Notes: generated by a model not told the origin, from the sequence alone. A stretch of 64,000 bases of DNA from Candidatus Micrarchaeota archaeon (GCA_040753215.1 JBFMEZ010000025.1:74440-138439); one strand, 5' to 3'. Shown: positions 13,143 through 52,252, counted from the stretch's first letter. A program made the numbers and translations.

Positions 13143-13364
13143 ATGGTAAGCATAACACTGTCCGTCCCTCTGGAGCTGAAGAAGGAGATGGAGGTCTTCC
13201 CGGAGATGAACTGGAGCGAGGTCGCGAGGCAGGCGATAATCAGGAAACTGCAGATGCTCAAGAAGTTCAGGGAATTCTCGAAGGAGAGCAAGCTCACAGA
13301 AGATGATGCGCTGCGGCTCGGCCAAGAAGTCAGCGCGGCGGTTTCAAGGCGCCACAAGAGATGA
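13143..13364 (+). CDS. vapB: VapB-type antitoxin (RHH/CopG-like)
   Basis: The protein begins MVSITLSVPLELKKEMEVFPEMNWSEVARQAI, typical of archaeal VapB antitoxins. It sits immediately upstream of a PIN-domain gene. Confidence 0.6.
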   Translation: MVSITLSVPLELKKEMEVFPEMNWSEVARQAIIRKLQMLKKFREFSKESKLTEDDALRLGQEVSAAVSRRHKR

Positions 13365-13368
13365 AGGG

Positions 13369-13764
13369 ATGCAGCTCGTGGTGGATGCGAACATCCTTTT
13401 CGCTGCCCTGATAAAGGACAGCAAGACAATCGAGCTTCTTTTCAGCGATTTTGCGATGTTCTTCGCCCCGGAATTCATACTTGAGGAATTCCAAAAGCAC
13501 AGGGACGAAATCCTGCAAAAGACCAGCAGGAGCCCGGAGGAGTTTGATTCCGTATTCGAAATCCTTAAGGAAGTCATCATCGTTGTGCCAAAAGAGGACT
13601 ACGAAGGCATGCTTCCCGCCGCGGATAAAATCGCCCCGGACCCTAAAGACGCCCCCTATCTCGCCCTTGCGCTCAAGTTGAACATTCCGATATGGAGCAA
13701 CGATAAGAGGCTAAAAACCCAAAACGAAGTGAACGTATACAGCACAAAAGAGCTTTTGGGATAA
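13369..13764 (+). CDS. vapC: VapC PIN-domain toxin
   Basis: The protein begins MQLVVDANILFAAL, with a conserved Asp in the first strand. It is ~130 aa and lies directly after vapB. Confidence 0.65.
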   Translation: MQLVVDANILFAALIKDSKTIELLFSDFAMFFAPEFILEEFQKHRDEILQKTSRSPEEFDSVFEILKEVIIVVPKEDYEGMLPAADKIAPDPKDAPYLALALKLNIPIWSNDKRLKTQNEVNVYSTKELLG

Positions 13765-14860: not shown

Positions 14861-16297
14861 CTATCTGACCGGCAAGGAGTCAAACATCCGCGTTATATCT
14901 TTCAACTCCAGCCCAACCACCCCCCGCTCTTCCATGTATCTTTTCGCAGATGGCGTAAATCCTGCCTTCGCAACGACCAGCATCCTTACGTTTGAGCGCT
15001 GTTCATGCGTGCAGGAAAGGAAGGAAATCCTGCTCTCAAGCTCCGCCACAACCTGCGCGTCAGCAGGCGTGTTCTCCCACTTCACCTCGCCCACGAGCAT
15101 GGATTTCTTCCCAAGCGCTACGATATCCATGTCTCCCTCCTTGCGCCCCCACCAGCTTCCAAGCTCGTAGAACTCCAGAACCGCGTCCCCAAGCTTTTTG
15201 CCGTTCCATTTCGCCAAAAGCTCCTTCACCACGCTTTCAAACACGCGCCCTTCGAAAGCAGGCATCTCCGCCGCAATCCTTTCCTTGACATAATTGTAGT
15301 TCTCTATCTCAAGCGCGGAAAGGTTCCTGAACACGAAATTGTACCAGAAGGCGAAGAAATTGTCCTGGAAAACATACTGCGGCCGGTGCTTGCCGCAGAG
15401 GGGCGTAATCTTTTTTATGAGCTCAAGGTACTTCTCCAGCTTGTTCAGGTAAAAACCCATCTGGCCTGCGCCAATCCCGGTCTGGTCAGATATTTCCTTC
15501 GGATTCCTGTGCCCGCCAGCAATTGCTGCCAGGATGGAATTGTACCTTCCCGTATTCTTCAGCTCCATCCGCAGGAGCGCCTGCGGCTCGTCGCGCAGAA
15601 GCCCGTCCTTCTTCAGCATTGCCGCCTCCACAACCCCCATGTACTTTGAAGCGTCGGTGCACTGCTCCGCAAAGCGCAGGTAGCTCGGCATCCCGCCGTA
15701 AGTTGCATAAAGCTTCATGAGCATCCCTTCATCAATCCCCGGAAGCGCCTGCCTGAACGACTGGTAGTCAAAAGGGCGAAGCTTTATCCGTGCGGTCGCC
15801 CTCCCAAAGAGAGGCGATTTGCTGCTTATCGCTATGCGTTGTATCGCGCCAACCGCTGAGCCGAGGAAAACAACCATTATCGGCACATCTTTGAGCTTGG
15901 TGTCCCATAATTTCTGGAACCTAGTGAAGGCCCTCGGGTCCGTGCGCATTCTCTGGAATTCATCAATCACTACGACGGTCTTCCTTTCCCCCGCCCTCTC
16001 ACCGAGAAATGAGAAGAAAGACTCCCACGCCCTGAAGTCTGCCCTGACCTCCGGCCACGATATGGATACATCTTCGGATATTGAACGGAGCATGTCCGCA
16101 GGAGCCCTCTCGTCCACGAGAATGTAAGCTCCTTCGTCCTTGGGAACGTTGTCGGCGAGGAATTTCCTTACAAGCTCGGTTTTCCCAACCCTCCTCCTGC
16201 CATACAGGATGATTAGTTCCCCGCGGCGCAGGTTCTCAAACCTCTGCCTGAAAGTTTCCAGCTCCTCTTTTCTGTCGGTGAATTTTACCATGCACAA
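14861..16297 (-). CDS. Archaeal ATPase family protein (AAA+ Arch_ATPase with C-terminal DUF234-like domain)
   Basis: Walker A reads GRRRVGKT and Walker B reads VVIDEFQ. The C-terminal winged-helix/DUF234-like region is of a type common in archaeal accessory regions. Confidence 0.65.
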   Translation of the reverse strand: MCMVKFTDRKEELETFRQRFENLRRGELIILYGRRRVGKTELVRKFLADNVPKDEGAYILVDERAPADMLRSISEDVSISWPEVRADFRAWESFFSFLGERAGERKTVVVIDEFQRMRTDPRAFTRFQKLWDTKLKDVPIMVVFLGSAVGAIQRIAISSKSPLFGRATARIKLRPFDYQSFRQALPGIDEGMLMKLYATYGGMPSYLRFAEQCTDASKYMGVVEAAMLKKDGLLRDEPQALLRMELKNTGRYNSILAAIAGGHRNPKEISDQTGIGAGQMGFYLNKLEKYLELIKKITPLCGKHRPQYVFQDNFFAFWYNFVFRNLSALEIENYNYVKERIAAEMPAFEGRVFESVVKELLAKWNGKKLGDAVLEFYELGSWWGRKEGDMDIVALGKKSMLVGEVKWENTPADAQVVAELESRISFLSCTHEQRSNVRMLVVAKAGFTPSAKRYMEERGVVGLELKDITRMFDSLPVR

Positions 16298-21251: not shown

Positions 21252-21278
21252 AAACCTGTCTGTATTATCCGATAATGT

Positions 21279-21318
21279 TTATAAAATACCGACTTTGTTT
21301 ATAAAATACCGACTTTCA
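21279..21318. promoter_or_regulatory. Tandem direct duplication of a TATA-box promoter element (gtttataaaataccgacttt x2)
   Basis: The 20-bp unit contains TTTATAAAAT and is repeated head-to-tail. It lies in the divergent intergenic region between secF and the sigma-like gene. Confidence 0.6.
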
Positions 21319-21378: not shown

Positions 21379-22452
21379 ATGCATGGTTCTATCACAGCCA
21401 GCGCCAGAGTGGTGCCTTCCCGCAATAGGAGCCTTCGCGGCAGGCCTCCGCTTGAAAATGTGGTCGCCGCGATCCTAAAGCCGGCGGGCCGCACGAAAGA
21501 AGAGGTGGCTTCCGCAGAGCAGGAGCTAGTCCAGAGGCGGGATTCCGGCAATTTGGGTAAAATCCGGCTTTGCTTGGCAATAAGGGCGATGGGGGCTGAG
21601 CCCTGCGACGCAAAGAAGGGACGCCTCGGCACCATTGTCCCGGATCACCTCCCGGACAGGACATTTGCAGAAGCTTGGGAGATGGTCCTCAAAAATATCC
21701 GCCTCATCGGGAAGTTTCTCTCCAGAATTCAAAATTTGCTAAAGAAATGCAACATCCCTGAAAAAGACGCCGAGCAGATACTCACCGAAAACATGTTCTG
21801 GGCCGCGCTTTTCCACGACGGCTCGAGAGCCGCATTCTCCACATACGCCATGGAATGGTTCAAGAGGGGCCGCACGGGAATCGTTGCAGAAGCAGGCCTC
21901 ATCACATTCCCGCACCACATAGTCACAGAGATGATAATGTTGGAGCGGTTCCGCGACAGGCACCCCCTCATGCCAGCGCACAGGATTGCAGATTGCCTGG
22001 ATATGGCTCCTGTGCGCGTAGAGAGGCTTATGCGCCTCCGCGGGCTCCGCGAATCATCCATACGCCCCTTAAATGCAGATACGCTTTTCAATTCCGACAC
22101 CCCTACCTTCAGGATGCACGAAACCCCGGACGAAACCCGCGGGGTGGTGCCCATAACGAGCTTCCCGCATGATGTGGTCGAGAAGATGAGGCCGCACCAG
22201 GAAGACGCTATCCTCAGGGAACAGCTCGACCAGAGCATGCGCAACGCCCTGCTGGTCCTGACTCCAAGGGAATCGCGGGTCCTGAAGATGCGCTTTGGGT
22301 TTGGAACGGGGGAAGGTGACACCTTCGAAGAAGCCGCCCGAAAGATGAACGTAACCAGGGAACGCATCCGCCAGATAGAAGCCAAGGCGCTGCGCAAGCT
22401 GTGGCACCCATCGCGCAGGTCTTTGCACCATTTCTTAGAGGATGATGATTAA
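21379..22452 (+). CDS. Bacterial-type sigma-70 (RpoD-like) homolog with degenerate region 2 and near-canonical region 4.2
   Basis: The C-terminus LTPRESRVLKMRFGF...VTRERIRQIEAKALRKLWHPSRRSLHHFLEDDD matches RpoD region 4.2 and even its C-terminal FLDD ending. Region 2.4-3.0 reads FSTYAMEWFKRGRTGIVAEAGLITFPHHIVTEMIML (compare FSTYATWWIRQAITR...RIPVHMIETINKL in RpoD). Region 2.1 reads EMVLKNIRLIGKF (compare EMVEANLRLVISIA). The first ~100 aa are unrelated to sigma factors. Confidence 0.65.
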   Translation: MHGSITASARVVPSRNRSLRGRPPLENVVAAILKPAGRTKEEVASAEQELVQRRDSGNLGKIRLCLAIRAMGAEPCDAKKGRLGTIVPDHLPDRTFAEAWEMVLKNIRLIGKFLSRIQNLLKKCNIPEKDAEQILTENMFWAALFHDGSRAAFSTYAMEWFKRGRTGIVAEAGLITFPHHIVTEMIMLERFRDRHPLMPAHRIADCLDMAPVRVERLMRLRGLRESSIRPLNADTLFNSDTPTFRMHETPDETRGVVPITSFPHDVVEKMRPHQEDAILREQLDQSMRNALLVLTPRESRVLKMRFGFGTGEGDTFEEAARKMNVTRERIRQIEAKALRKLWHPSRRSLHHFLEDDD

Positions 22453-22507
22453 TCCTGCTTATTATGCAGGCAGGTAAATTGGCAGACAGCATACTGCTGA
22501 CAGCAAA

Positions 22508-22530
22508 TGCGGCCGCCGGGATTCGAACCC
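22508..22530 (-). other. Displaced 23-nt copy of the tRNA-Gly(TCC) 3' end (T-arm plus acceptor), an att-like duplication
   Basis: Identical to positions 23141-23163 of the intact tRNA. It is separated from the tRNA by the cdd cassette. Confidence 0.8.
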
Positions 22531-22534
22531 TCCC

Positions 22535-22629
22535 AAAAACGCGGAGGGGAGCGCCCCTCCCCATTTTTAGGGTTCATTCTGACCCTCCCCCAACTTCTCT
22601 TTGCAACCCTTTGCCAGTACTCCTTACGC
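22535..22629 (+). repeat. Family B repeat, copy B1
   Basis: It contains aaaacgcggaggggagcgcccctcccca (a near-palindromic hairpin), then ttctgaccctccccc, ctttgcaa, and ...actccttacgc. Nine other copies are present in the window. Confidence 0.8.
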
Positions 22630-22634
22630 AAGGT

Positions 22635-23024
22635 TCAATATGCCTTATCCCAAGGATATGGAAGCAGCTCCCTGAGTTTGGCTACTTTATTTTTTCCAAT
22701 AATAACTTCTGTATCCAGGTTTTCTTCACTAATCTGGCTCATGAACTCTCTGCACGCTCCACACGGAGGGATAATTCCATATTCCGAAACTGCCACTATT
22801 TTCTTTATTTTGTACTCCCCGTTCGTAACCATGGCAGCGATGGCACCCTGTTCTGCACAGAAACCCATGCCAGAGGCGGTGTCTATACTTACGCCCGAAT
22901 AAATAGTGCCTTTATTTGAAATTAGCGCACATCCAACATCCCCGATTGTGAATCCGTGTTTTATCTTTCTCGGCTTCAATATGGATTTGGCCTTCTCAAC
23001 CAGTTGCTCATCCGTTATTTGCAT
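22635..23024 (-). CDS. cdd: Cytidine deaminase
   Basis: The zinc-binding motifs CAEQGAI and PCGACREFM are present. The protein is ~129 aa, starting at MQITDEQL. The gene is markedly AT-rich (~40% GC) relative to its surroundings. Confidence 0.8.
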   Translation of the reverse strand: MQITDEQLVEKAKSILKPRKIKHGFTIGDVGCALISNKGTIYSGVSIDTASGMGFCAEQGAIAAMVTNGEYKIKKIVAVSEYGIIPPCGACREFMSQISEENLDTEVIIGKNKVAKLRELLPYPWDKAY

Positions 23025-23099: not shown

Positions 23100-23140
23100 A
23101 CGGATACCGAAAACCCAAAACGGGAAACAGGAAACTGTTT
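23100..23140 (-). terminator. T-rich GTTTCCN heptamer array immediately 3' of tRNA-Gly(TCC)
   Basis: On the transcribed strand it reads aaaacagtttcctgtttcccgttttgggttttcgg, with several oligo-T runs. An equivalent array follows tRNA-Gly(GCC) at 38521-38559. Confidence 0.5.
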
Positions 23141-23211
23141 TGCGGCCGCCGGGATTCGAACCCGGGTCGTTGGCTTGGAAGGCCAAAATCCTACCGCTAG
23201 ACTACGGCCGC
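23141..23211 (-). tRNA. tRNA-Gly (anticodon TCC)
   Basis: Cloverleaf: acceptor GCGGCCG/CGGCCGC, D-arm TAGTCTAGCGGTAGGA, anticodon stem ttggc/gccaa with loop cttCCaa, and T-arm GGGTTCGAATCCC. CCA is not encoded. Confidence 0.85.
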
Positions 23212-23287
23212 TCTCCTTTTTACATCGTGAAGCTCGCCATAGCTCGCTTCACTCTGCCTTTGGGTTGCCTCGCTCATGCTGCAGCAT

Positions 23288-23334
23288 TCTGCATCGCTGC
23301 GGCGATGTCTGGCGAAGTTCTGCGGAACTTCACC
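23288..23334 (+). repeat. Family A repeat, partial copy A2
   Basis: It contains the gcatcgctgcggcgatg hairpin followed by tctggcgaagttctgcggaacttcacc. Confidence 0.6.
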
Positions 23335-23396
23335 ATCGCTCGGCGCAAAAAGGAGCCCAAAAACCTCAAGCTCCTTTACCTCATTTCTCTCTACGT

Positions 23397-23448
23397 TTCT
23401 GACCCCCTCCCACTTCACTTTGCAACTCTTTGAACGTACTCCTTACGC
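23397..23448 (+). repeat. Family B repeat, partial copy B2, upstream (on the minus strand) of tRNA-Gly(TCC)
   Basis: Reads ttctgaccccctcccacttcactttgcaactctttgaacgtactccttacgc. Confidence 0.7.
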
Positions 23449-23500
23449 GTGGGGTTCAGTATTTATATTATGGCAAGAGAAGAAAATTAAAAGACCGCGC

Positions 23501-26810: not shown

Positions 26811-28175
26811 ATGCCGGAGATGCGCATCTACCCCCTGAAGAACGTCCCCGAAGAAATAATCGCAGCCGCCTTCGCAAAAACCAGCCGCTCCCCCGAGCCC
26901 TTCGACAAGATAGCGGCAGAGCTGAGCGCCGAATCATCTTCAAAATTCCACGAGAAATGGGTAGTGGGCTACGGCCACTCCAGCGTAGCCGAGCATTCTG
27001 TCGCCCATCTCGCAGCCGAAAACATCTCCCGCCTCGCGATAGAAACGATAGAATCCAACCGCCTCGGCTCCTACACCGAGAAATCCACCCGCTACCAGCA
27101 ATTAGATGAGGAGCATACCCATCTTCCTGAAGAAATCAAGGGAACCTCCCTCGAGCGCAATTACAAGGATGCCCTGGACATTCTCTTCTCCACCTATGAA
27201 AAGTCCCTCTCAGCCCTTGTGGATTACTACTCCTCCCAATCAAAGCCCGAACCAGGAAAGGAGAAGGCCCACGAAATCAAGCTCAAAACCATGGCAATGG
27301 ATTCTGCCCGCTTCCTCCTCCCCAACTCCACCCTCGCAAACGTTGGAATAACGATGAACGCCCGCTCCCTCGAGCACGCGCTCGTAAAGATGCTTTCCCA
27401 TCCCCTTGCAGAAGTAAGAAGGGCAGGCCTTCTCCTGAGGGATGCAGGGATGCAGGCATTCCCGACTCTTCTCAGGAAGGCGGAGGAAAACACAGCGCTT
27501 GCCGGGTTCCAGGAAGAATCCAGAAAACAATTCAGCCCGTTCTCCTCCCCCGCAGGAAGCAAGCACGCCTCCCTCATCCACTACGATAAAAATGCCCTCG
27601 AAAACCTCTCCGCCTCCATCCTATACCGCTGGAGCGGCCTCTCCTATGAAGATGCACTGGAGCATGTGCGCTCCTCCAGGCCTTCCAGTCCGATGGAAAT
27701 ATTCAGGTCCGTAACCGCCCGCTTCCCCGAAGGCCTCAAGCCAATCCGCGAGTTCGAGCACATCACCTACACCTTCGATTTGCTGATGGACCAGGGCGCC
27801 TACTACGAATTCAAGCGCCACCGCATGCTCACCATAAGCGCCCAGGAGCCCACAATCTCCCTCGGCTACAGAATCCCCCAGGATATAGAAAAATGCGGAA
27901 TGAAAAAAGAATTCGCAGAAGCGATGAAGGAGAGCGAGGGATGCTTCCGGGAAATAGAAGAAACCCATCCCTTTGCAGCCGGCTACATCGCCACGAATGC
28001 CCACCACCGCCGCGTCCTCGCAACCATGAACCTCCGCGAGCTCGCAACCTTCATAAAGCTCAGGAGCGCCCCATTCGCCCACTTCACCATCCGCGAGCTT
28101 GCCCTTGAGATGCTGGAGGAATTGAGGAAAGTCCACCCGGAATTCGCGGAATCCATAGGGCCCGGAGTGGTTTAA
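26811..28175 (+). CDS. thyX: FAD-dependent thymidylate synthase ThyX-like, tandem two-domain form
   Basis: The N-terminal half reads GHSSVAEHSVAHL...RYQQL. The C-terminal half carries RHRMLTISAQ, the ThyX RHRxxxxxxxS-type motif. At 454 aa it is about twice the usual ThyX size. Confidence 0.55.
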   Translation: MPEMRIYPLKNVPEEIIAAAFAKTSRSPEPFDKIAAELSAESSSKFHEKWVVGYGHSSVAEHSVAHLAAENISRLAIETIESNRLGSYTEKSTRYQQLDEEHTHLPEEIKGTSLERNYKDALDILFSTYEKSLSALVDYYSSQSKPEPGKEKAHEIKLKTMAMDSARFLLPNSTLANVGITMNARSLEHALVKMLSHPLAEVRRAGLLLRDAGMQAFPTLLRKAEENTALAGFQEESRKQFSPFSSPAGSKHASLIHYDKNALENLSASILYRWSGLSYEDALEHVRSSRPSSPMEIFRSVTARFPEGLKPIREFEHITYTFDLLMDQGAYYEFKRHRMLTISAQEPTISLGYRIPQDIEKCGMKKEFAEAMKESEGCFREIEETHPFAAGYIATNAHHRRVLATMNLRELATFIKLRSAPFAHFTIRELALEMLEELRKVHPEFAESIGPGVV

Positions 28176-34173: not shown

Positions 34174-35076
34174 CTATCCAACATACTCCCAGTACTGCTT
34201 CACGAAAACCGAGAACAGATACCGCACGAAATGCGCGCTCCGTTTCGAGTAGTCCACCTTCCGCAGCACAAGATAATAGAGCATTTTTTCTGCATCAAAT
34301 ATATTCAGCAGCGGATACCCGTTCCTCAGCAGCACCAAGTTCATGAGCAGCCTGGACATCCTTCCATTCCCGTCCCTGAACGGGTGTATGCGCACAAACT
34401 TGAGGTGCACGAGCGCCGCCAGCTCAAAGGGGTTCAGCTTCCCCTTCGCCTCCGAGTACCACCTGAAGAACTTTCCCATCAGCTCCGGCACCTCCTCGTG
34501 CCTCGGCGCAAAATAGCCTCCCACCCGCACATCCACATCCCTGTACCTGCCCGCATCCCGCATGGAACCATCCATCTGCATCCTGTGCAGCTTCAGCACC
34601 AGCTTCTCAGAAATATCTTCTCTGTTGCTGAAGAGGAAATCGACGCACTTCTTCATGTTCCTCGCTTCCCGCGCGTACTCCCCCTTTCCCTTCACTCTTC
34701 TCCCCAGCAGCGCCGCCTCCGTCTCCTCCAGCGTGAGCGTGCTTCCCTCAATCGCATTCGTGTTGTAGATGAAGCTTACCAGCCGCTCCCTCTCTTCCTT
34801 CCAGAGGTTCTTTCCTATCCTGTGCTTTTTCGAGTAATTTTTCCTTATTTTTTCCAGCACCTCCGTTTCCTCTTCTGAAAGAATGGGCTTCGGGCGCTCC
34901 CGCCTCGGCTTCTCAAAGCCGGCCGGCGTATGCACGCCGAGGTATTTCCGCACCTTCTTCGTCTTCTCCCCAACTCTCTTCGTCTCCGTAAGATAGTAGT
35001 AAGTCTTTCCCGCGATTTTTTTCTTCTCTATGTATCCCGCCATACATACATTTAGGGGGCACGCCATTTTAAACAT
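34174..35076 (-). CDS. Fic family protein (AMPylase-type Fic/Doc domain)
   Basis: The Fic motif HPFRDGNGRMSRLL is present. The start is uncertain: MACPL or MAGYIEKK. Confidence 0.8.
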   Translation of the reverse strand: MFKMACPLNVCMAGYIEKKKIAGKTYYYLTETKRVGEKTKKVRKYLGVHTPAGFEKPRRERPKPILSEEETEVLEKIRKNYSKKHRIGKNLWKEERERLVSFIYNTNAIEGSTLTLEETEAALLGRRVKGKGEYAREARNMKKCVDFLFSNREDISEKLVLKLHRMQMDGSMRDAGRYRDVDVRVGGYFAPRHEEVPELMGKFFRWYSEAKGKLNPFELAALVHLKFVRIHPFRDGNGRMSRLLMNLVLLRNGYPLLNIFDAEKMLYYLVLRKVDYSKRSAHFVRYLFSVFVKQYWEYVG

Positions 35077-38853: not shown

Positions 38854-39924
38854 GTGAATTCTGTCCATATAATCGGCGCAGGGCCTGCTGGCGCAGTCGC
38901 CGCAATCTCAGCCCTCCGCGAGGGTCACAGAGTAGAAATGAGCGAGGAGCACCCTACTCCCGGCTTTCCTGTTGACTGCTCCGGCCTTGTTTCTAGGGAA
39001 GGCCTGGAATCCCTCTCCGGCCTGGTTGATTACAGGAACCACACCATCAACCCAATTCACGGCGCAATCCTGGATTTCTCCGGCCACACCCTCAGGATAG
39101 ATGCTAGGAAGCCGGTCGCATTCGTAATCAACCGCGCTTCCTTCGACCTCTCCCTCTCCAAAAAGGCCGAATCCGAAGGCGCAAGATTAATCTGCAATGA
39201 GCGCATCTCCTCCCAATTCCGCGGCGATTCCATAATAGGCGCAGACGGCCCCAATTCATCAGTCGCTTCCCATTTCCAATTCCCGCAAATCCGCCGCTTC
39301 GTCCTCACCGCCCGCTGCACCGTAAAATATGATGGGGAAAATCCCCATTCCATCCGCGCCTACCTCTCCAACAAGCTCTCTCCCGGCTTCTTCTCCTGGC
39401 TCATCCCCCACAATGAGGAATACGCGGAAATGGGAACGGGTGTCCTCCTTCCCAAAAACCCACTCCCGTCCCTCCATTCCCTCTCCAGAAGAACAGGAAT
39501 CCCGCTCCCAAAGGAAATCCGCTTCGCCCTTATCCCTCTCGAATGCAGGAAGAAAACCTCCCTCCGCTCCGCAGGAAAATCCGTCCTTCTCGCAGGAGAT
39601 GCAGCCGGCCAGGTAAAATCCACCACCGGAGGAGGGGTCTTCTTCGGAACCTCCTGCGCCCGCCTCGCGGGAAGGCATGCATTCTTCCCCGAAGTATACG
39701 AGAAGGAATGGAGAGCCCTGCACGGGAAAGACCTGCGCCTCCACAAATTTGCCCATCGCCTCTACGGCCTGCTCCCCGACCCGCCCATGAACCTCGCAGG
39801 GAAAGCCCTCTCTTTCTTCAAAGTGGAGAGATACCTGGAGGAAAGGGGGCAGATGGACAGGCCGACGGAAATCCTCCGCCCTTCCCTCCTGGGGCACACC
39901 TTCTCCTCGCTGATGCAAAAATAG
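38854..39924 (+). CDS. FAD-dependent oxidoreductase, geranylgeranyl reductase family
   Basis: The N-terminus reads HIIGAGPAGAVAA (Rossmann FAD motif), and the GDAAG motif is present. Confidence 0.7.
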   Translation: MNSVHIIGAGPAGAVAAISALREGHRVEMSEEHPTPGFPVDCSGLVSREGLESLSGLVDYRNHTINPIHGAILDFSGHTLRIDARKPVAFVINRASFDLSLSKKAESEGARLICNERISSQFRGDSIIGADGPNSSVASHFQFPQIRRFVLTARCTVKYDGENPHSIRAYLSNKLSPGFFSWLIPHNEEYAEMGTGVLLPKNPLPSLHSLSRRTGIPLPKEIRFALIPLECRKKTSLRSAGKSVLLAGDAAGQVKSTTGGGVFFGTSCARLAGRHAFFPEVYEKEWRALHGKDLRLHKFAHRLYGLLPDPPMNLAGKALSFFKVERYLEERGQMDRPTEILRPSLLGHTFSSLMQK

Positions 39925-49467: not shown

Positions 49468-49782
49468 GTGAAGAAAATGGAGGAAAGATTGGAGGAGTTT
49501 GAGGAAATAGAGGAGCCAAAAAAGGGGAGAAAGCCAAGTTCTGATGAGTCCGAATCCGCACCGAGCGAAAGCGTTGGCGCGAGGCCGGACTTCCGCGTGG
49601 TCCAGACCGAAAGGGATGCGGAGGGCAAGACAATATACAAGAACGTGGGTGGGCTCTGGAAGCGCACGAGCAAGAATGGAAACACATACTACAGCATGAG
49701 CATAGGCCGATTGAGGCTGCTCGTATTCCCTAACGACAGGGATGGTGGTTCTTATGGCAGAGAAGACAGAGAAGAAATATGA
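49468..49782 (+). CDS. Hypothetical acidic/basic small protein
   Basis: 104-aa ORF with a strong Shine-Dalgarno-like sequence (aaaaggtgaag) about 8 nt upstream. Confidence 0.4.
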   Translation: MKKMEERLEEFEEIEEPKKGRKPSSDESESAPSESVGARPDFRVVQTERDAEGKTIYKNVGGLWKRTSKNGNTYYSMSIGRLRLLVFPNDRDGGSYGREDREEI

Positions 49783-52252
49783 GCTCCCGAAGGAGCTGGA
49801 GGACCTTCCTGGAATAGGGGAGGCGACCGCGGAGAGGCTGCGCAAGGCCGGTTATACATCTATGGACCAGATTGCGGCCGCGATGCCCCACGAGCTCGCG
49901 GAAGCGGGTGAATTCGGGGCGGAAGCCGCAAAGAAGGCCATCGCAGTTGCGCAGGAAGCTGTGGAGACCGGCTACGAGACCGCGGACCTGATATTCGAGC
50001 GCAGGAAGGAAATCAAGAGGATTCCAACCGGCTCCAAGAACTTCGACGATTTGATTGGAGGCGGAGTGGAGACCCAGGCAATCACCGAGTGCTTCGGAAA
50101 GTTCAGTTCTGGGAAATGTGTTTCCGGGGATACCCCGCTGGTCTTCTTCAATTCCAGCTCCCCGCACATTCGCTCCTTTGAGGACGTATATAATACATAC
50201 AAGACCGAAGAGTTCGAGCAGGATGGCGGCACATTCTCCGTTCCCTCAAAGGAACTGCACGTGCTCAGCCTCGGGGATGACTGCCAATTGAGGAAGGAAA
50301 AGGTCCAGCACCTCTACAAGGAGAAAGTAACTTCGATACAAGAGATGGAAACCTCCCGCGGCTCGGTCATAAAGGCGACGAAGAGGCACCCGCTCCTCGT
50401 TTTCTCAGAAGAAGGGATGGAGTGGAAATCTTCTGGCCTTCTTTCCGAAGGGGCGTACGTTGCGGTGCCAAAAGAGATAAGGACAGAATCAGAGACGGAG
50501 ATAAGCGCAGAGGATGCATATTTCCTCGGCCTCTTTGCCGCTGAGGGTACAGCCAATCCATTCAGCATAACCAACTACGATGAAAAAATAAACGCAAAGC
50601 TGCACGACTACATACGAAAGAGGTTCGGCAGGGAGCCGTCCTTCAGGAAGGAGAGGGGCCTCACGCTCCTTTTCAAGGACGCAGAACCTTTGCTCGGGGA
50701 GCTCGCCTCTTCCAATTCCGGGACGAAGTTCATACCGGACAGCGTGCTCAGCGGAAGTGATGAGATTGCTGCCTCATTCCTGTCGGGCTACATAGATGGC
50801 GACGGCTTCGTCTCCAACTGCCCCGAGCTTTGCACGAAATCCGCAAAACTCGCCTCCCAGCTGACCTACCTCCTTTCCCGCTTTGGGATAGGCTGCTCGG
50901 TCAGGCACAAGAAGGTGGAGGAGAGCAGGTTCTACAGGATTTTCATAACCGACGCAGGAAGCAAAACGCGCCTCATGAAAATCCTGGGCCAGAGCACGAA
51001 GGGCCTGGATGCGCTTTCCTGCGAAGGCAAGCACTCGGAATACGGGATTCCGTCCAAACCATTGCGCACAATCCTGAAGCGGCTGCACGGGAAGCTCTCA
51101 GGCACGCACAGGAGGGACATCTCGGCCAAGAAGGCGGAAATAGCGGAGGGAAAGTTCTTCAGCCTCTATTTTAACTACCTTGCAAGGACTCCCGCGACCC
51201 GCGTGGCCACGGAAGAAACCGTGAAGCTTGCCCTGGATTTCTACAGGGAGAGGGTAGGGAAGATGCGCGGGCACGAGGCGCTCCTCTCGGAGCCAACAAG
51301 TGAAAAAATCCTCAACGCGCTTAGGGACATTCTGTTCAAGAGCACTGCCCTTGTGCAGAGGCTCGGGATAAAGAGGCCGACCTTCCAGAATTTCGTAACC
51401 AGGAAGAAAGTTCCGGAGGAAAGGGTTGCGCAGGTCGCCTCGGCTATCCGCACCCTTATTGCGGAGACTCTCTCGGACCCAGCCCTTGCAAAAGACCTCA
51501 AGACGCTGGAACTGCTCGCAAACGGGAACATGCGCTGGGAAAAGGTCATAAGGATGGAAGAGAAGCCCTACGACGGATATGTGTACGACCTGGTCGTTCC
51601 GGGGGCGCACAACTTCGTCGCTGGCTTCAAGCCGATGCTGATGCACAACACGCAGGTCGGCTTCCAGCTCGCGGTGAACGCCCAGAAGGCCCTCTCAGCC
51701 AACGGAACGCCCGCAAGGGTCCTCTTCATAGACACGGAAAGCACCTTCCGCCCGGAGAGGATAATCCAGATTGCGGAGGCGCAGGGGCTGGATCCGCAGG
51801 AGGTCCTGAAGAACATCCTCGTCGCCAAGGCTGAGAACTCAGACCACCAGCTGATTCTCGTGGAAAAGGCCGGCAACGTAATCGAGAAGGAGAACATTAA
51901 GCTGATAATAGTCGACTCCCTCACCTCCCACTTCCGCGCTGATTACGTAGGCAGGGGCGCCCTTAGCGAAAGGCAGCAGAAGCTGAACAAGCACATCCAC
52001 ACCCTGCAGAAGTATGCGGACAAGTACAACATCGCAATCTATGTGACCAACCAGGTCATGGACAACCCGGGGATTCTTTTCGGGGACCCGACCATGCCGA
52101 TTGGAGGCCACATTTTGGCGCACGCAGCGACCTACCGCCTCTACCTGCGCAAGAGCAAGGAGGAAAAAAGGATTGCGAGGCTCGTGGATTCGCCCAACAT
52201 GCCCGAAGGCGAGACGGTCTTCAAGGTCACGAAGGGCGGCGTAATCGATTAG
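49757..52252 (+). CDS. radA: DNA repair and recombination protein RadA, interrupted by a 511-aa intein with LAGLIDADG homing endonuclease domain (intein approx 50117-51649)
   Basis: The N-terminal HhH reads LPGIGEATAERLRKAGY. The Walker A motif is split GKFSSGK|CVSGDTPL...MLMHN|TQVGF. The intein carries LAGLIDADG motifs YFLGLFAAEG and LSGYIDGDG. The exteins total 325 aa, typical of RadA. Confidence 0.9.
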   Translation, partial: AEKTEKKYELPKELEDLPGIGEATAERLRKAGYTSMDQIAAAMPHELAEAGEFGAEAAKKAIAVAQEAVETGYETADLIFERRKEIKRIPTGSKNFDDLIGGGVETQAITECFGKFSSGKCVSGDTPLVFFNSSSPHIRSFEDVYNTYKTEEFEQDGGTFSVPSKELHVLSLGDDCQLRKEKVQHLYKEKVTSIQEMETSRGSVIKATKRHPLLVFSEEGMEWKSSGLLSEGAYVAVPKEIRTESETEISAEDAYFLGLFAAEGTANPFSITNYDEKINAKLHDYIRKRFGREPSFRKERGLTLLFKDAEPLLGELASSNSGTKFIPDSVLSGSDEIAASFLSGYIDGDGFVSNCPELCTKSAKLASQLTYLLSRFGIGCSVRHKKVEESRFYRIFITDAGSKTRLMKILGQSTKGLDALSCEGKHSEYGIPSKPLRTILKRLHGKLSGTHRRDISAKKAEIAEGKFFSLYFNYLARTPATRVATEETVKLALDFYRERVGKMRGHEALLSEPTSEKILNALRDILFKSTALVQRLGIKRPTFQNFVTRKKVPEERVAQVASAIRTLIAETLSDPALAKDLKTLELLANGNMRWEKVIRMEEKPYDGYVYDLVVPGAHNFVAGFKPMLMHNTQVGFQLAVNAQKALSANGTPARVLFIDTESTFRPERIIQIAEAQGLDPQEVLKNILVAKAENSDHQLILVEKAGNVIEKENIKLIIVDSLTSHFRADYVGRGALSERQQKLNKHIHTLQKYADKYNIAIYVTNQVMDNPGILFGDPTMPIGGHILAHAATYRLYLRKSKEEKRIARLVDSPNMPEGETVFKVTKGGVID

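Follow-up and report, generated by a model that had tools for sequence, protein, structure and literature searches.

A sigma-70-family protein of Candidatus Micrarchaeota, possibly remodelled into a DNA-binding transcription regulator

Bacteria pick their promoters by sigma and archaea and eukaryotes by TBP together with TFB/TFIIB, two systems that are viewed as analogous yet separate. Here, homology tests and a predicted fold show that a protein encoded on a Candidatus Micrarchaeota contig is a genuine member of the sigma-70 family with sigma2 and sigma4 domains and a sigma3-like region between them, and its relatives, as far as sequence searches define them, are a small, Micrarchaeota-specific branch of that family. 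The reading that we favour, with confidence that is evenly balanced, is that the protein would act as a sequence-specific DNA-binding transcription regulator, remodelled from an anciently transferred group-1/2 sigma, rather than as a true sigma factor. We analysed a stretch of 64,000 nucleotides (GCA_040753215.1, JBFMEZ010000025.1:74440-138439), called the window below; all positions are counted from its first letter unless another contig is named.

The gene and its product

The gene is a complete open reading frame that begins with ATG and encodes 357 aa plus a stop codon (Table 1), with the position and length given in an earlier note on this DNA that had been written from the sequence alone. 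The strings quoted in that note, YAMEWFKRGRTG, TFPHHI, VTRERIRQIEAKALRKL and the terminal FLEDDD, are all found in the product. An identical NCBI protein, the sole exact record, is named 'MAG: sigma-70 family RNA polymerase sigma factor [Candidatus Micrarchaeota archaeon]'.

Table 1. Coordinates of the gene, its domains and associated features
Feature	Position	Strand	Basis or remark
Sigma-70-family protein, open reading frame	21379..22452	+	Translation; identity to NCBI protein
N-terminal helical module, family-specific (residues ~21-98)	21439..21672	+	Family motif; no region 1.2 similarity
Sigma2-like domain (residues ~99-178, regions 2.1-2.4)	21673..21912	+	Homology, fold
Sigma3-like region (residues ~179-230, regions 3.0-3.1 helix-turn-helix)	21913..22068	+	hhalign to residue 222; AF2 pLDDT 81-91
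Variable linker (residues ~231-273, region 3.2 position)	22069..22197	+	pLDDT 41-59; gappy family alignment
Sigma4 domain (residues ~274-346, regions 4.1-4.2)	22198..22416	+	Recognition helix VTRERIRQIEAKALRKL, as in bacterial RpoD
TATA-like box TTTTTAAAAA	21347-21356	+	Centred ~27 nt before ATG; sequence, relatives' boxes
GC-rich hairpin, terminator-like, T-runs flanking on both strands	22543..22560	.	91 nt past stop codon
Family member L008	6931-7920, JAKQHW010000047.1		RpoD-like 4.2 helix lost

Homology to sigma-70 from region 2.1 to region 4.2

Region 4 is the part of the protein that is recognised most readily. The Pfam profile Sigma70_r4 (PF04545) matches residues 290-341, the helix-turn-helix (HTH) of regions 4.1-4.2, with 61.8 bits against a cut-off of 24.1, and the -35 recognition helix of region 4.2, VTRERIRQIEAKALRKL, is identical to that of bacterial RpoD; the description of region 4.2 as RpoD-like was therefore sound. 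A phmmer search against the PDB aligned residues 152-354 to regions 2.3-4.2 of RpoD/SigA. The NCBIfam RpoD models match chiefly residues ~265-354, the full-length ones aligning from ~152, and their scores of 77-92 bits exceed those of RpoS (57) and RpoH (37). Since the RpoD models stand at the top of the NCBIfam sigma scores, a group-1/2 origin is indicated, but the RpoD equivalog level, with cut-offs of 500-572, was missed (the best score was 92 against 555).

Upstream of region 4, single-sequence and simple profile searches fade quickly. The region 2 and region 3 profiles of Pfam gave no match above threshold in the query, and a profile built from 60 bacterial RpoD hits scored 98 bits over region 4, only 7.6 bits over residues 152-219 and nothing over residues 1-151. 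Of the three Sigma70 profiles by which the earlier note had proposed to check its claim, r4 thus passes and r2 and r3 stay below the Pfam thresholds, but regions 2-3 were recovered by profile-profile comparison. When region 4 was cut from both the family profile and the bacterial profile, hhalign still aligned 119 collinear columns over regions 2.1-3.1 (98.2% probability, E 3e-14), so the homology does extend beyond the HTH, contrary to one possibility that had been raised; full length against full length, it aligned 310 columns (99.9% probability, E 4e-37). An AF2 model made from the family-only alignment has a fold that matches full-length SigA/RpoD as well as isolated sigma2 and sigma4 domains. 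For the sigma2 domain (regions 2.1-2.4), the homology and fold tests are both positive. For sigma3, the Sigma70_r3 profile of Pfam is weak, being seen in 2 of 15 family members with a best E of 4.7e-4; the hhalign columns run through the region 3.1 HTH. Homology over regions 2.1 to 4.2, as the earlier note had it, is hence a point on which profile-profile comparison and fold prediction agree.

The label "full-length RpoD-type" holds in part only. The sigma domains from 2.1 to 4.2 are there, but regions 1.1 and 1.2 and the non-conserved region are missing from the protein, and in front of sigma2 stands the family-specific module listed in Table 1, with the motif R61..L..G72-x-E74-P75-x-D-A..T..L..VVP..P92-x-R94-T95..E-A99-W100. 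We considered whether this module could be a diverged region 1.2; hhalign between the two gave a probability of 0.3%, and we rejected this reading. A fold search with the module returned weak generic helical matches and no convincing structural relative.

A small family confined to Micrarchaeota

The family consists of about 20 relatives of 290-377 aa with intact frames. It came to light only through exhaustive HMMER searching: with the N-terminal 275 aa as query, 14 relatives were recovered among 1.84 billion cluster representatives (E 1e-24 to 5e-4; one is a 186-aa fragment), most of which also bear sigma region 4. Word-indexed searching returned only bacterial RpoD, by way of region 4, when given the whole protein, and almost no matches when given the N-terminal 275 aa or the family's N-terminal alignment. 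A cluster look-up supplied further close variants together with a single named member, MDO8553833.1, 'Candidatus Micrarchaeota archaeon'. We also scanned DNA collections with a degenerate pattern that encodes the family-specific block E-P-x-[DE]...P-x-R-T-x-x-[DE]-A-W...N, which matches once in the window, at the gene itself, and not at all in shuffled copies of the window. In GTDB, where each of 185,579 species was represented by a single genome, the pattern met 3 contigs, all from Ca. Micrarchaeota MAGs; there were 6 contigs in the JGI metagenomes and 0 matches in IMG/VR. These counts underestimate the true spread of the family, because the scan skips members that deviate from the motif.

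Every named genome that carries a family member is labelled Candidatus Micrarchaeota by its depositors, and none is viral. Where the context exists, the neighbours of family members are archaeal housekeeping genes (eRF1, MCM, L11, LeuRS, TrmB, archease, GAPDH, beta-CASP and RNase J). Synteny in relatives' genomes, a check suggested in the earlier note, did not emerge: the family members lie at differing, non-syntenic positions, and neither synteny between family genomes nor a recurrent partner gene was seen at the loci compared. The window copy is a distant member, its closest relative being at most 36% identical. The family HMM and tblastn found no second copy in the window. The open reading frame at 38854-39924 had looked like a possible paralog, since it matches the gene in length and likewise has a 222-aa open reading frame on its antisense strand; BLASTP showed no similarity, and Pfam assigns it as FAD/geranylgeranyl-reductase-like.

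One further arrangement was noted beside the closest relative, P0122 (Micrarchaeota MAG GCA_030648615.1), where L001 6093-6932 holds two small free-standing open reading frames with weak LAGLIDADG_3 matches and a divergent TrmB-family regulator; the window has no equivalent of these LAGLIDADG_3 frames or of the TrmB arrangement.

Residues kept and residues lost

The roles of the core-binding, melting, -10 and -35 positions are here presumed from general sigma-70 structural knowledge; Y430, W433, W434, Q437 and T440 below are in E. coli numbering. In region 4.2, residues R327, E328, R329, R331 and Q332 of the R-E-R-x-R-Q string are kept in 17, 15, 14, 17 and 15 of 21 family members, respectively. 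In region 2, the conserved positions are N106 of region 2.1, D130, and F153-S-T-Y156, the FSTY of region 2.3 that includes the Y430 equivalent; FSTY and N106 are nearly invariant. The core-binding motif DLIQEGN of region 2.2 has given way to a strongly conserved, family-specific (E/D)D....MF.AALYWD..K, in which only the D is partly kept.

The earlier note had reported that residues of regions 2.3 and 2.4 are replaced, and YAMEWFKRGRTG and TFPHHI do stand in the query at these places. In region 2.3, the tryptophan pair is not conserved across the family, and the query has E-W against the bacterial W-W, with E at W433 and with W434 kept; in region 2.4, RTIRIPVHM becomes G..(F/I)P in the family and TFPHHI in the query. 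The equivalents of Q437 and T440 are unconserved across the family, so that out of the set Y430, W433, W434, Q437 and T440, the family conserves only FSTY with its Y430.

The family is not uniform in the remaining positions. The window copy deviates from it at conserved sites (T81G, W146H, G108R and C164G). In L008/P0135, P0131, P0134 and L010 the RpoD-like recognition helix is lost (e.g., MDVSRAKNLLERALAHL), and the N-terminal module and the FSTY block are kept. Members of the family may therefore differ in the DNA sequence that they prefer, or in whether they bind DNA at all.

An archaeal neighbourhood, host-like composition and selection

The archaeal surroundings that had been described for the gene (TFE, RadA, aIF6, SecFD) were all verified in the window. 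Its neighbours are SecF, SecD, ThrRS with the archaea-specific editing domain, cytidine deaminase, a DUF234 ATPase, glutamine synthetase (glnA) and an Lrp/AsnC regulator, and further archaeal genes of the window encode Nre, aIF2-alpha, an aIF2B-like protein, GINS51, FEN1, a DHH-CID (GAN-like) nuclease, TFE-alpha and aIF6. Bacterial RNA polymerase genes were absent from the window. In comparison with 19 neighbour genes, the GC content of the gene is 0.569 (neighbours, 0.51-0.61), its GC3 0.684 (0.57-0.85) and its codon-usage log-score 0.088 (-0.06 to 0.30). The GC content does match the host, as had been claimed, and the composition is ameliorated; since GC, GC3 and codon use are all host-like, a long residence may be assumed.

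These data bear on the idea that the contig is chimeric, an assembly or binning artefact in which bacterial DNA was joined to an archaeal contig. The 53-57% identity of region 4 to bacterial RpoD would fit such an origin, but archaeal genes extend for tens of kb on each side, the composition is that of the neighbours, three other Micrarchaeota MAGs, each assembled independently, and several metagenome contigs carry homologs, in every case among archaeal genes, and nothing bacterial corresponds to the N-terminal 275 residues. We regard an artefact as next to impossible.

A second idea, offered in the earlier note, is a functionless, decaying relic of horizontal gene transfer. It could draw on regions 2 and 3 being below the Pfam thresholds, on the deviations of the window copy from the consensus at conserved positions and on the low identity to the nearest ortholog. 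Against it, the frame is intact here and in the ~20 relatives, which are similar in length, invariant motifs mark the family, its fold is predicted with confidence, and a promoter-like TATA box lies at the expected distance. For the pair L014 and L012, which share 61% aa identity, the Nei-Gojobori dN/dS is 0.18 (N-terminal part, 0.18; region 4, 0.19); in the sigma2-3 part of this pair, synonymous sites are saturated. With dS of ~1.5 near saturation, the pN/pS of 0.34 is a conservative bound for the pair. The selection figure comes from this single pair, the only one suitably diverged, of which the window copy is not a member. Taken with the invariant motifs, the ratio indicates that the family is maintained by selection, and that selection is, by this sequence comparison, purifying. 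Decay is thus highly improbable; on these data, the relic reading and the chimeric-contig reading are both rejected.

Several other genes of the window deserve mention in their own right. The RadA gene at 49742-52252 (+) encodes 836 aa and carries an intein with a LAGLIDADG homing-endonuclease domain, the Rad51 matches being split round Intein_splicing and LAGLIDADG_3. ThyX (Thy1) at 26811-28175 (+) has 454 aa, about 2x the usual length, and two Thy1 stretches, which suggests an internal duplication or a fusion. The DUF234/ATPase_2 ATPase at 14861-16297 (-) matches the PADLOC candidate defence family PDC-S27 at near full length (E 1.5e-39), a PIN_2 protein is encoded not far from it at 13303-13764, and a Fic/DOC-family protein of 300 aa is encoded among housekeeping genes at 34174-35076 (-).

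Promoter and flanks of the gene

Upstream of the gene, the box TTTTTAAAAA (Table 1) is a putative archaeal TBP-dependent promoter of the sigma-like gene. The same TTTTAAA box occurs at -30 to -33 from the ATG in the independent members L014 and L004/L015. Because the spacing of the box before the ATG matches that of an archaeal TBP-dependent promoter, the mRNA would be leaderless or nearly so. Further upstream, at 21276-21316, lies an exact tandem repeat of 20 bp x2 (TGTTTATAAAATACCGACTT x2), each copy of which contains the palindromic TATA TTTATAAA. This duplicated TATA had been pointed out as an unusual divergent promoter next to the gene; the proximal TTTATAAA is ~30 nt from the start codon of secF, on the opposite strand, and for this reason the repeat is probably a duplicated secF promoter, separate from that of the sigma-like gene, which has its own TATA.

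Signals of the bacterial type are not enriched: sigma-70-type promoters number 9, with 10.5+-4.0 expected, and TTGACA numbers 12, with 19.8+-4.8 expected, so we do not assume bacterial-type promoter use genome-wide. TTGACA-like sites were also absent upstream of the family genes, which leaves autoregulation through such a site unsupported at every one of them.

Directly 3' of the sigma-like gene, we observed a degraded duplicate of a tRNA-Gly(TCC) locus (window 22490-22640 and 23125-23460). The 3' end of the tRNA recurs as an exact 23-nt copy (22508-22530 = 23141-23163), a flanking stretch of 46 nt is shared at 83% (22584-22629 vs 23403-23448), and ~190 nt, including most of the tRNA, are deleted. 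A cytidine deaminase gene (22635-~23024, minus strand) lies between the two copies. The duplicate looks like a scar of local duplication or rearrangement and not like an att site around the sigma-like gene. An element integrated through the 23-nt tRNA-Gly sequence was considered and discarded, the duplicate spanning the cytidine deaminase and not the sigma-like gene, with no integrase.

Regulator or polymerase-binding factor

We propose a mechanism for the origin and action of the protein as a DNA-binding regulator. A group-1/2 (RpoD-like) bacterial sigma would have been acquired long ago by horizontal transfer. It would then have lost regions 1.1 and 1.2 and most determinants of core binding, melting and -10 recognition, acquired the N-terminal module as a new part and retained the HTH that reads the -35 element. 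The sigma4 HTH, possibly aided by the sigma3 HTH, would bind a TTGACA-like operator near TBP/TFB promoters, and the sigma2-like domain together with the N-terminal module could serve as a protein-interaction or regulatory surface. Region 1.1 of sigma-70 masks DNA binding; because this autoinhibitory region is absent here, the free protein could bind DNA.

Two sets of observations point to a regulator rather than a sigma factor. The R-E-R-x-R-Q string is kept, and the equivalents of W433/W434, Q437/T440 and QEGN are unconserved. Furthermore, sigma-70 promoters are not enriched, TFE is encoded in the window, and the promoter of the gene itself looks archaeal. A repurposed DNA-binding regulator was among the options listed in the earlier note, and it is the one we prefer, at roughly even confidence. 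Other observations count against it. The sigma2 domain and the sigma3-like region are kept, confidently modelled and under a dN/dS like that of region 4, which argues against a plain HTH regulator. The family genes lack a TTGACA-like site upstream, and the recognition helix is lost in L008/P0135, P0131 and P0134. The reading is further weakened in that the selection pair excludes the window copy, which is itself distant from its relatives and deviates at conserved sites.

Since a plain HTH regulator would have no need of sigma2 and sigma3, contact with RNA polymerase has to be weighed as a rival. Bacterial sigma, NusG/Spt5 and TFE all engage the clamp coiled-coil, a site conserved universally. 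In a true RNA-polymerase-binding specificity factor, the sigma2-like domain would dock to the Rpo1 clamp coiled-coil and sigma4 would contact upstream DNA, so that the polymerase is redirected or modulated alongside TBP/TFB. In its favour, sigma2, the sigma3-like region and sigma4 stand in their usual order and are subject to purifying selection. This retention, together with a near-invariant FSTY, is as compatible with a function still tied to RNA polymerase as with a regulatory domain. N106 is nearly invariant too, and the strongly conserved MF.AALYWD..K of region 2.2 could suit a different clamp surface. A transcriptional role was also left possible for the sigma-70 proteins described by Castelle et al. 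2021 (PMC8204110). The QEGN core-binding residues, the W433/W434 pair and the -10-reading residues of region 2.4 are, however, unconserved across the family, and bacterial-type promoter signals are not enriched. In addition, to our knowledge the archaeal RNA polymerase lacks the bacterial beta-flap-tip that partners sigma4. We therefore hold a polymerase-binding specificity factor to be unlikely. A more elaborate form of this idea has the family operate in a sigma-like way in initiation or specificity of the archaeal RNA polymerase, with the remodelled sigma2 on the clamp coiled-coil, the RpoD-type sigma4 on a TTGACA-like element and the N-terminal module as an adaptor; this we find quite doubtful.

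A sigma-derived protein that has long been kept under selection in archaea is a natural experiment on the reuse of one system's parts in the other, and a bare annotation has now become a defined family of ~20 members with motifs, kept and lost residues and a confident model. Were the protein only a regulator, it would be a neat case of domain repurposing after inter-domain transfer; polymerase binding would be a major surprise, and if the sigma-like reading were true, Micrarchaeota would have bacterial-style promoter selection alongside TBP/TFB.

Comparison with known systems

Among annotated protein families, the best NCBIfam and PADLOC model for the protein is MzaA, the sigma of the MZA anti-phage system (98.7 and 65.7 bits), and the phage sigma family phrog_351 (PHROG 351) matches residues 99-351 with E 3e-25. 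These matches raise the question of whether the gene belongs to a mobile element or a defence system, be it an MzaA-like sigma or one borne by a virus or plasmid; the differing, non-syntenic positions of family members from genome to genome and the tRNA-Gly 3'-end duplicate in the 3' flank would agree with this. Yet the NCBIfam score of MzaA is far below its cut-off of 800, and of the ~700 aa of MzaA only the C-terminal sigma domains match (residues ~152-354 here). MzaB-E and other conserved partners were found at no locus of the family, and PADLOC recognised none among the neighbours in the window (SecF, SecD, cytidine deaminase, glnA). With a partial, below-cut-off match and no partners, an MZA defence system is set aside. 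The phage match reflects a generic sigma-70 likeness, the N-terminal module having no PHROG match, and no IMG/VR contig carries the family motif, so a viral origin is set aside as well. There is no integrase, the tRNA duplicate encloses the cytidine deaminase rather than the sigma-like gene, and the composition is host-like. A mobile or defence origin is, in our judgement, very unlikely.

Within archaea, the nearest precedent is fam00359, the DPANN sigma-70 of Castelle et al. 2021 (PMC8204110), who reported sigma-70-class genes in DPANN, especially Woesearchaeota, ruled out mis-binning and found no anti-sigma factors. The gene is thus not the unique oddity that it might have seemed, all the more so as its NCBI name already places it in the sigma-70 family. 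Both fam00359 and the present family are bacterial-type sigma-70 homologs in DPANN with no assigned function, but the paper stresses Woesearchaeota, and the family in this study is seen by Pfam through region 4 alone and has an N-terminal module of its own. A 2018 review of archaeal transcription (PMC7289017) brings in sigma-70 solely as the functional counterpart of TBP/TFB, and in open-access papers we found neither a Micrarchaeota-specific subfamily nor its N-terminal module described. What is already known, then, is the occurrence of sigma-70 in DPANN and the sigma-70 annotation of the protein; what is new is the Micrarchaeota-restricted branch, the pattern of kept and lost residues, the N-terminal module and the evidence for selection.

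A further comparison is with the group 1/2 sigma factors of bacteria, RpoD/SigA and RpoS. With them the protein shares the domain order (sigma2, a probable sigma3, sigma4), the identical VTRERIRQIEAKALRKL, FSTY with the N of region 2.1, and the fold. It differs from them in having lost regions 1.1 and 1.2 and the non-conserved region, in the replacement of region 2.2, W433 and region 2.4, in its new N-terminal module and in its host, an archaeon of the TBP/TFB/TFE type.
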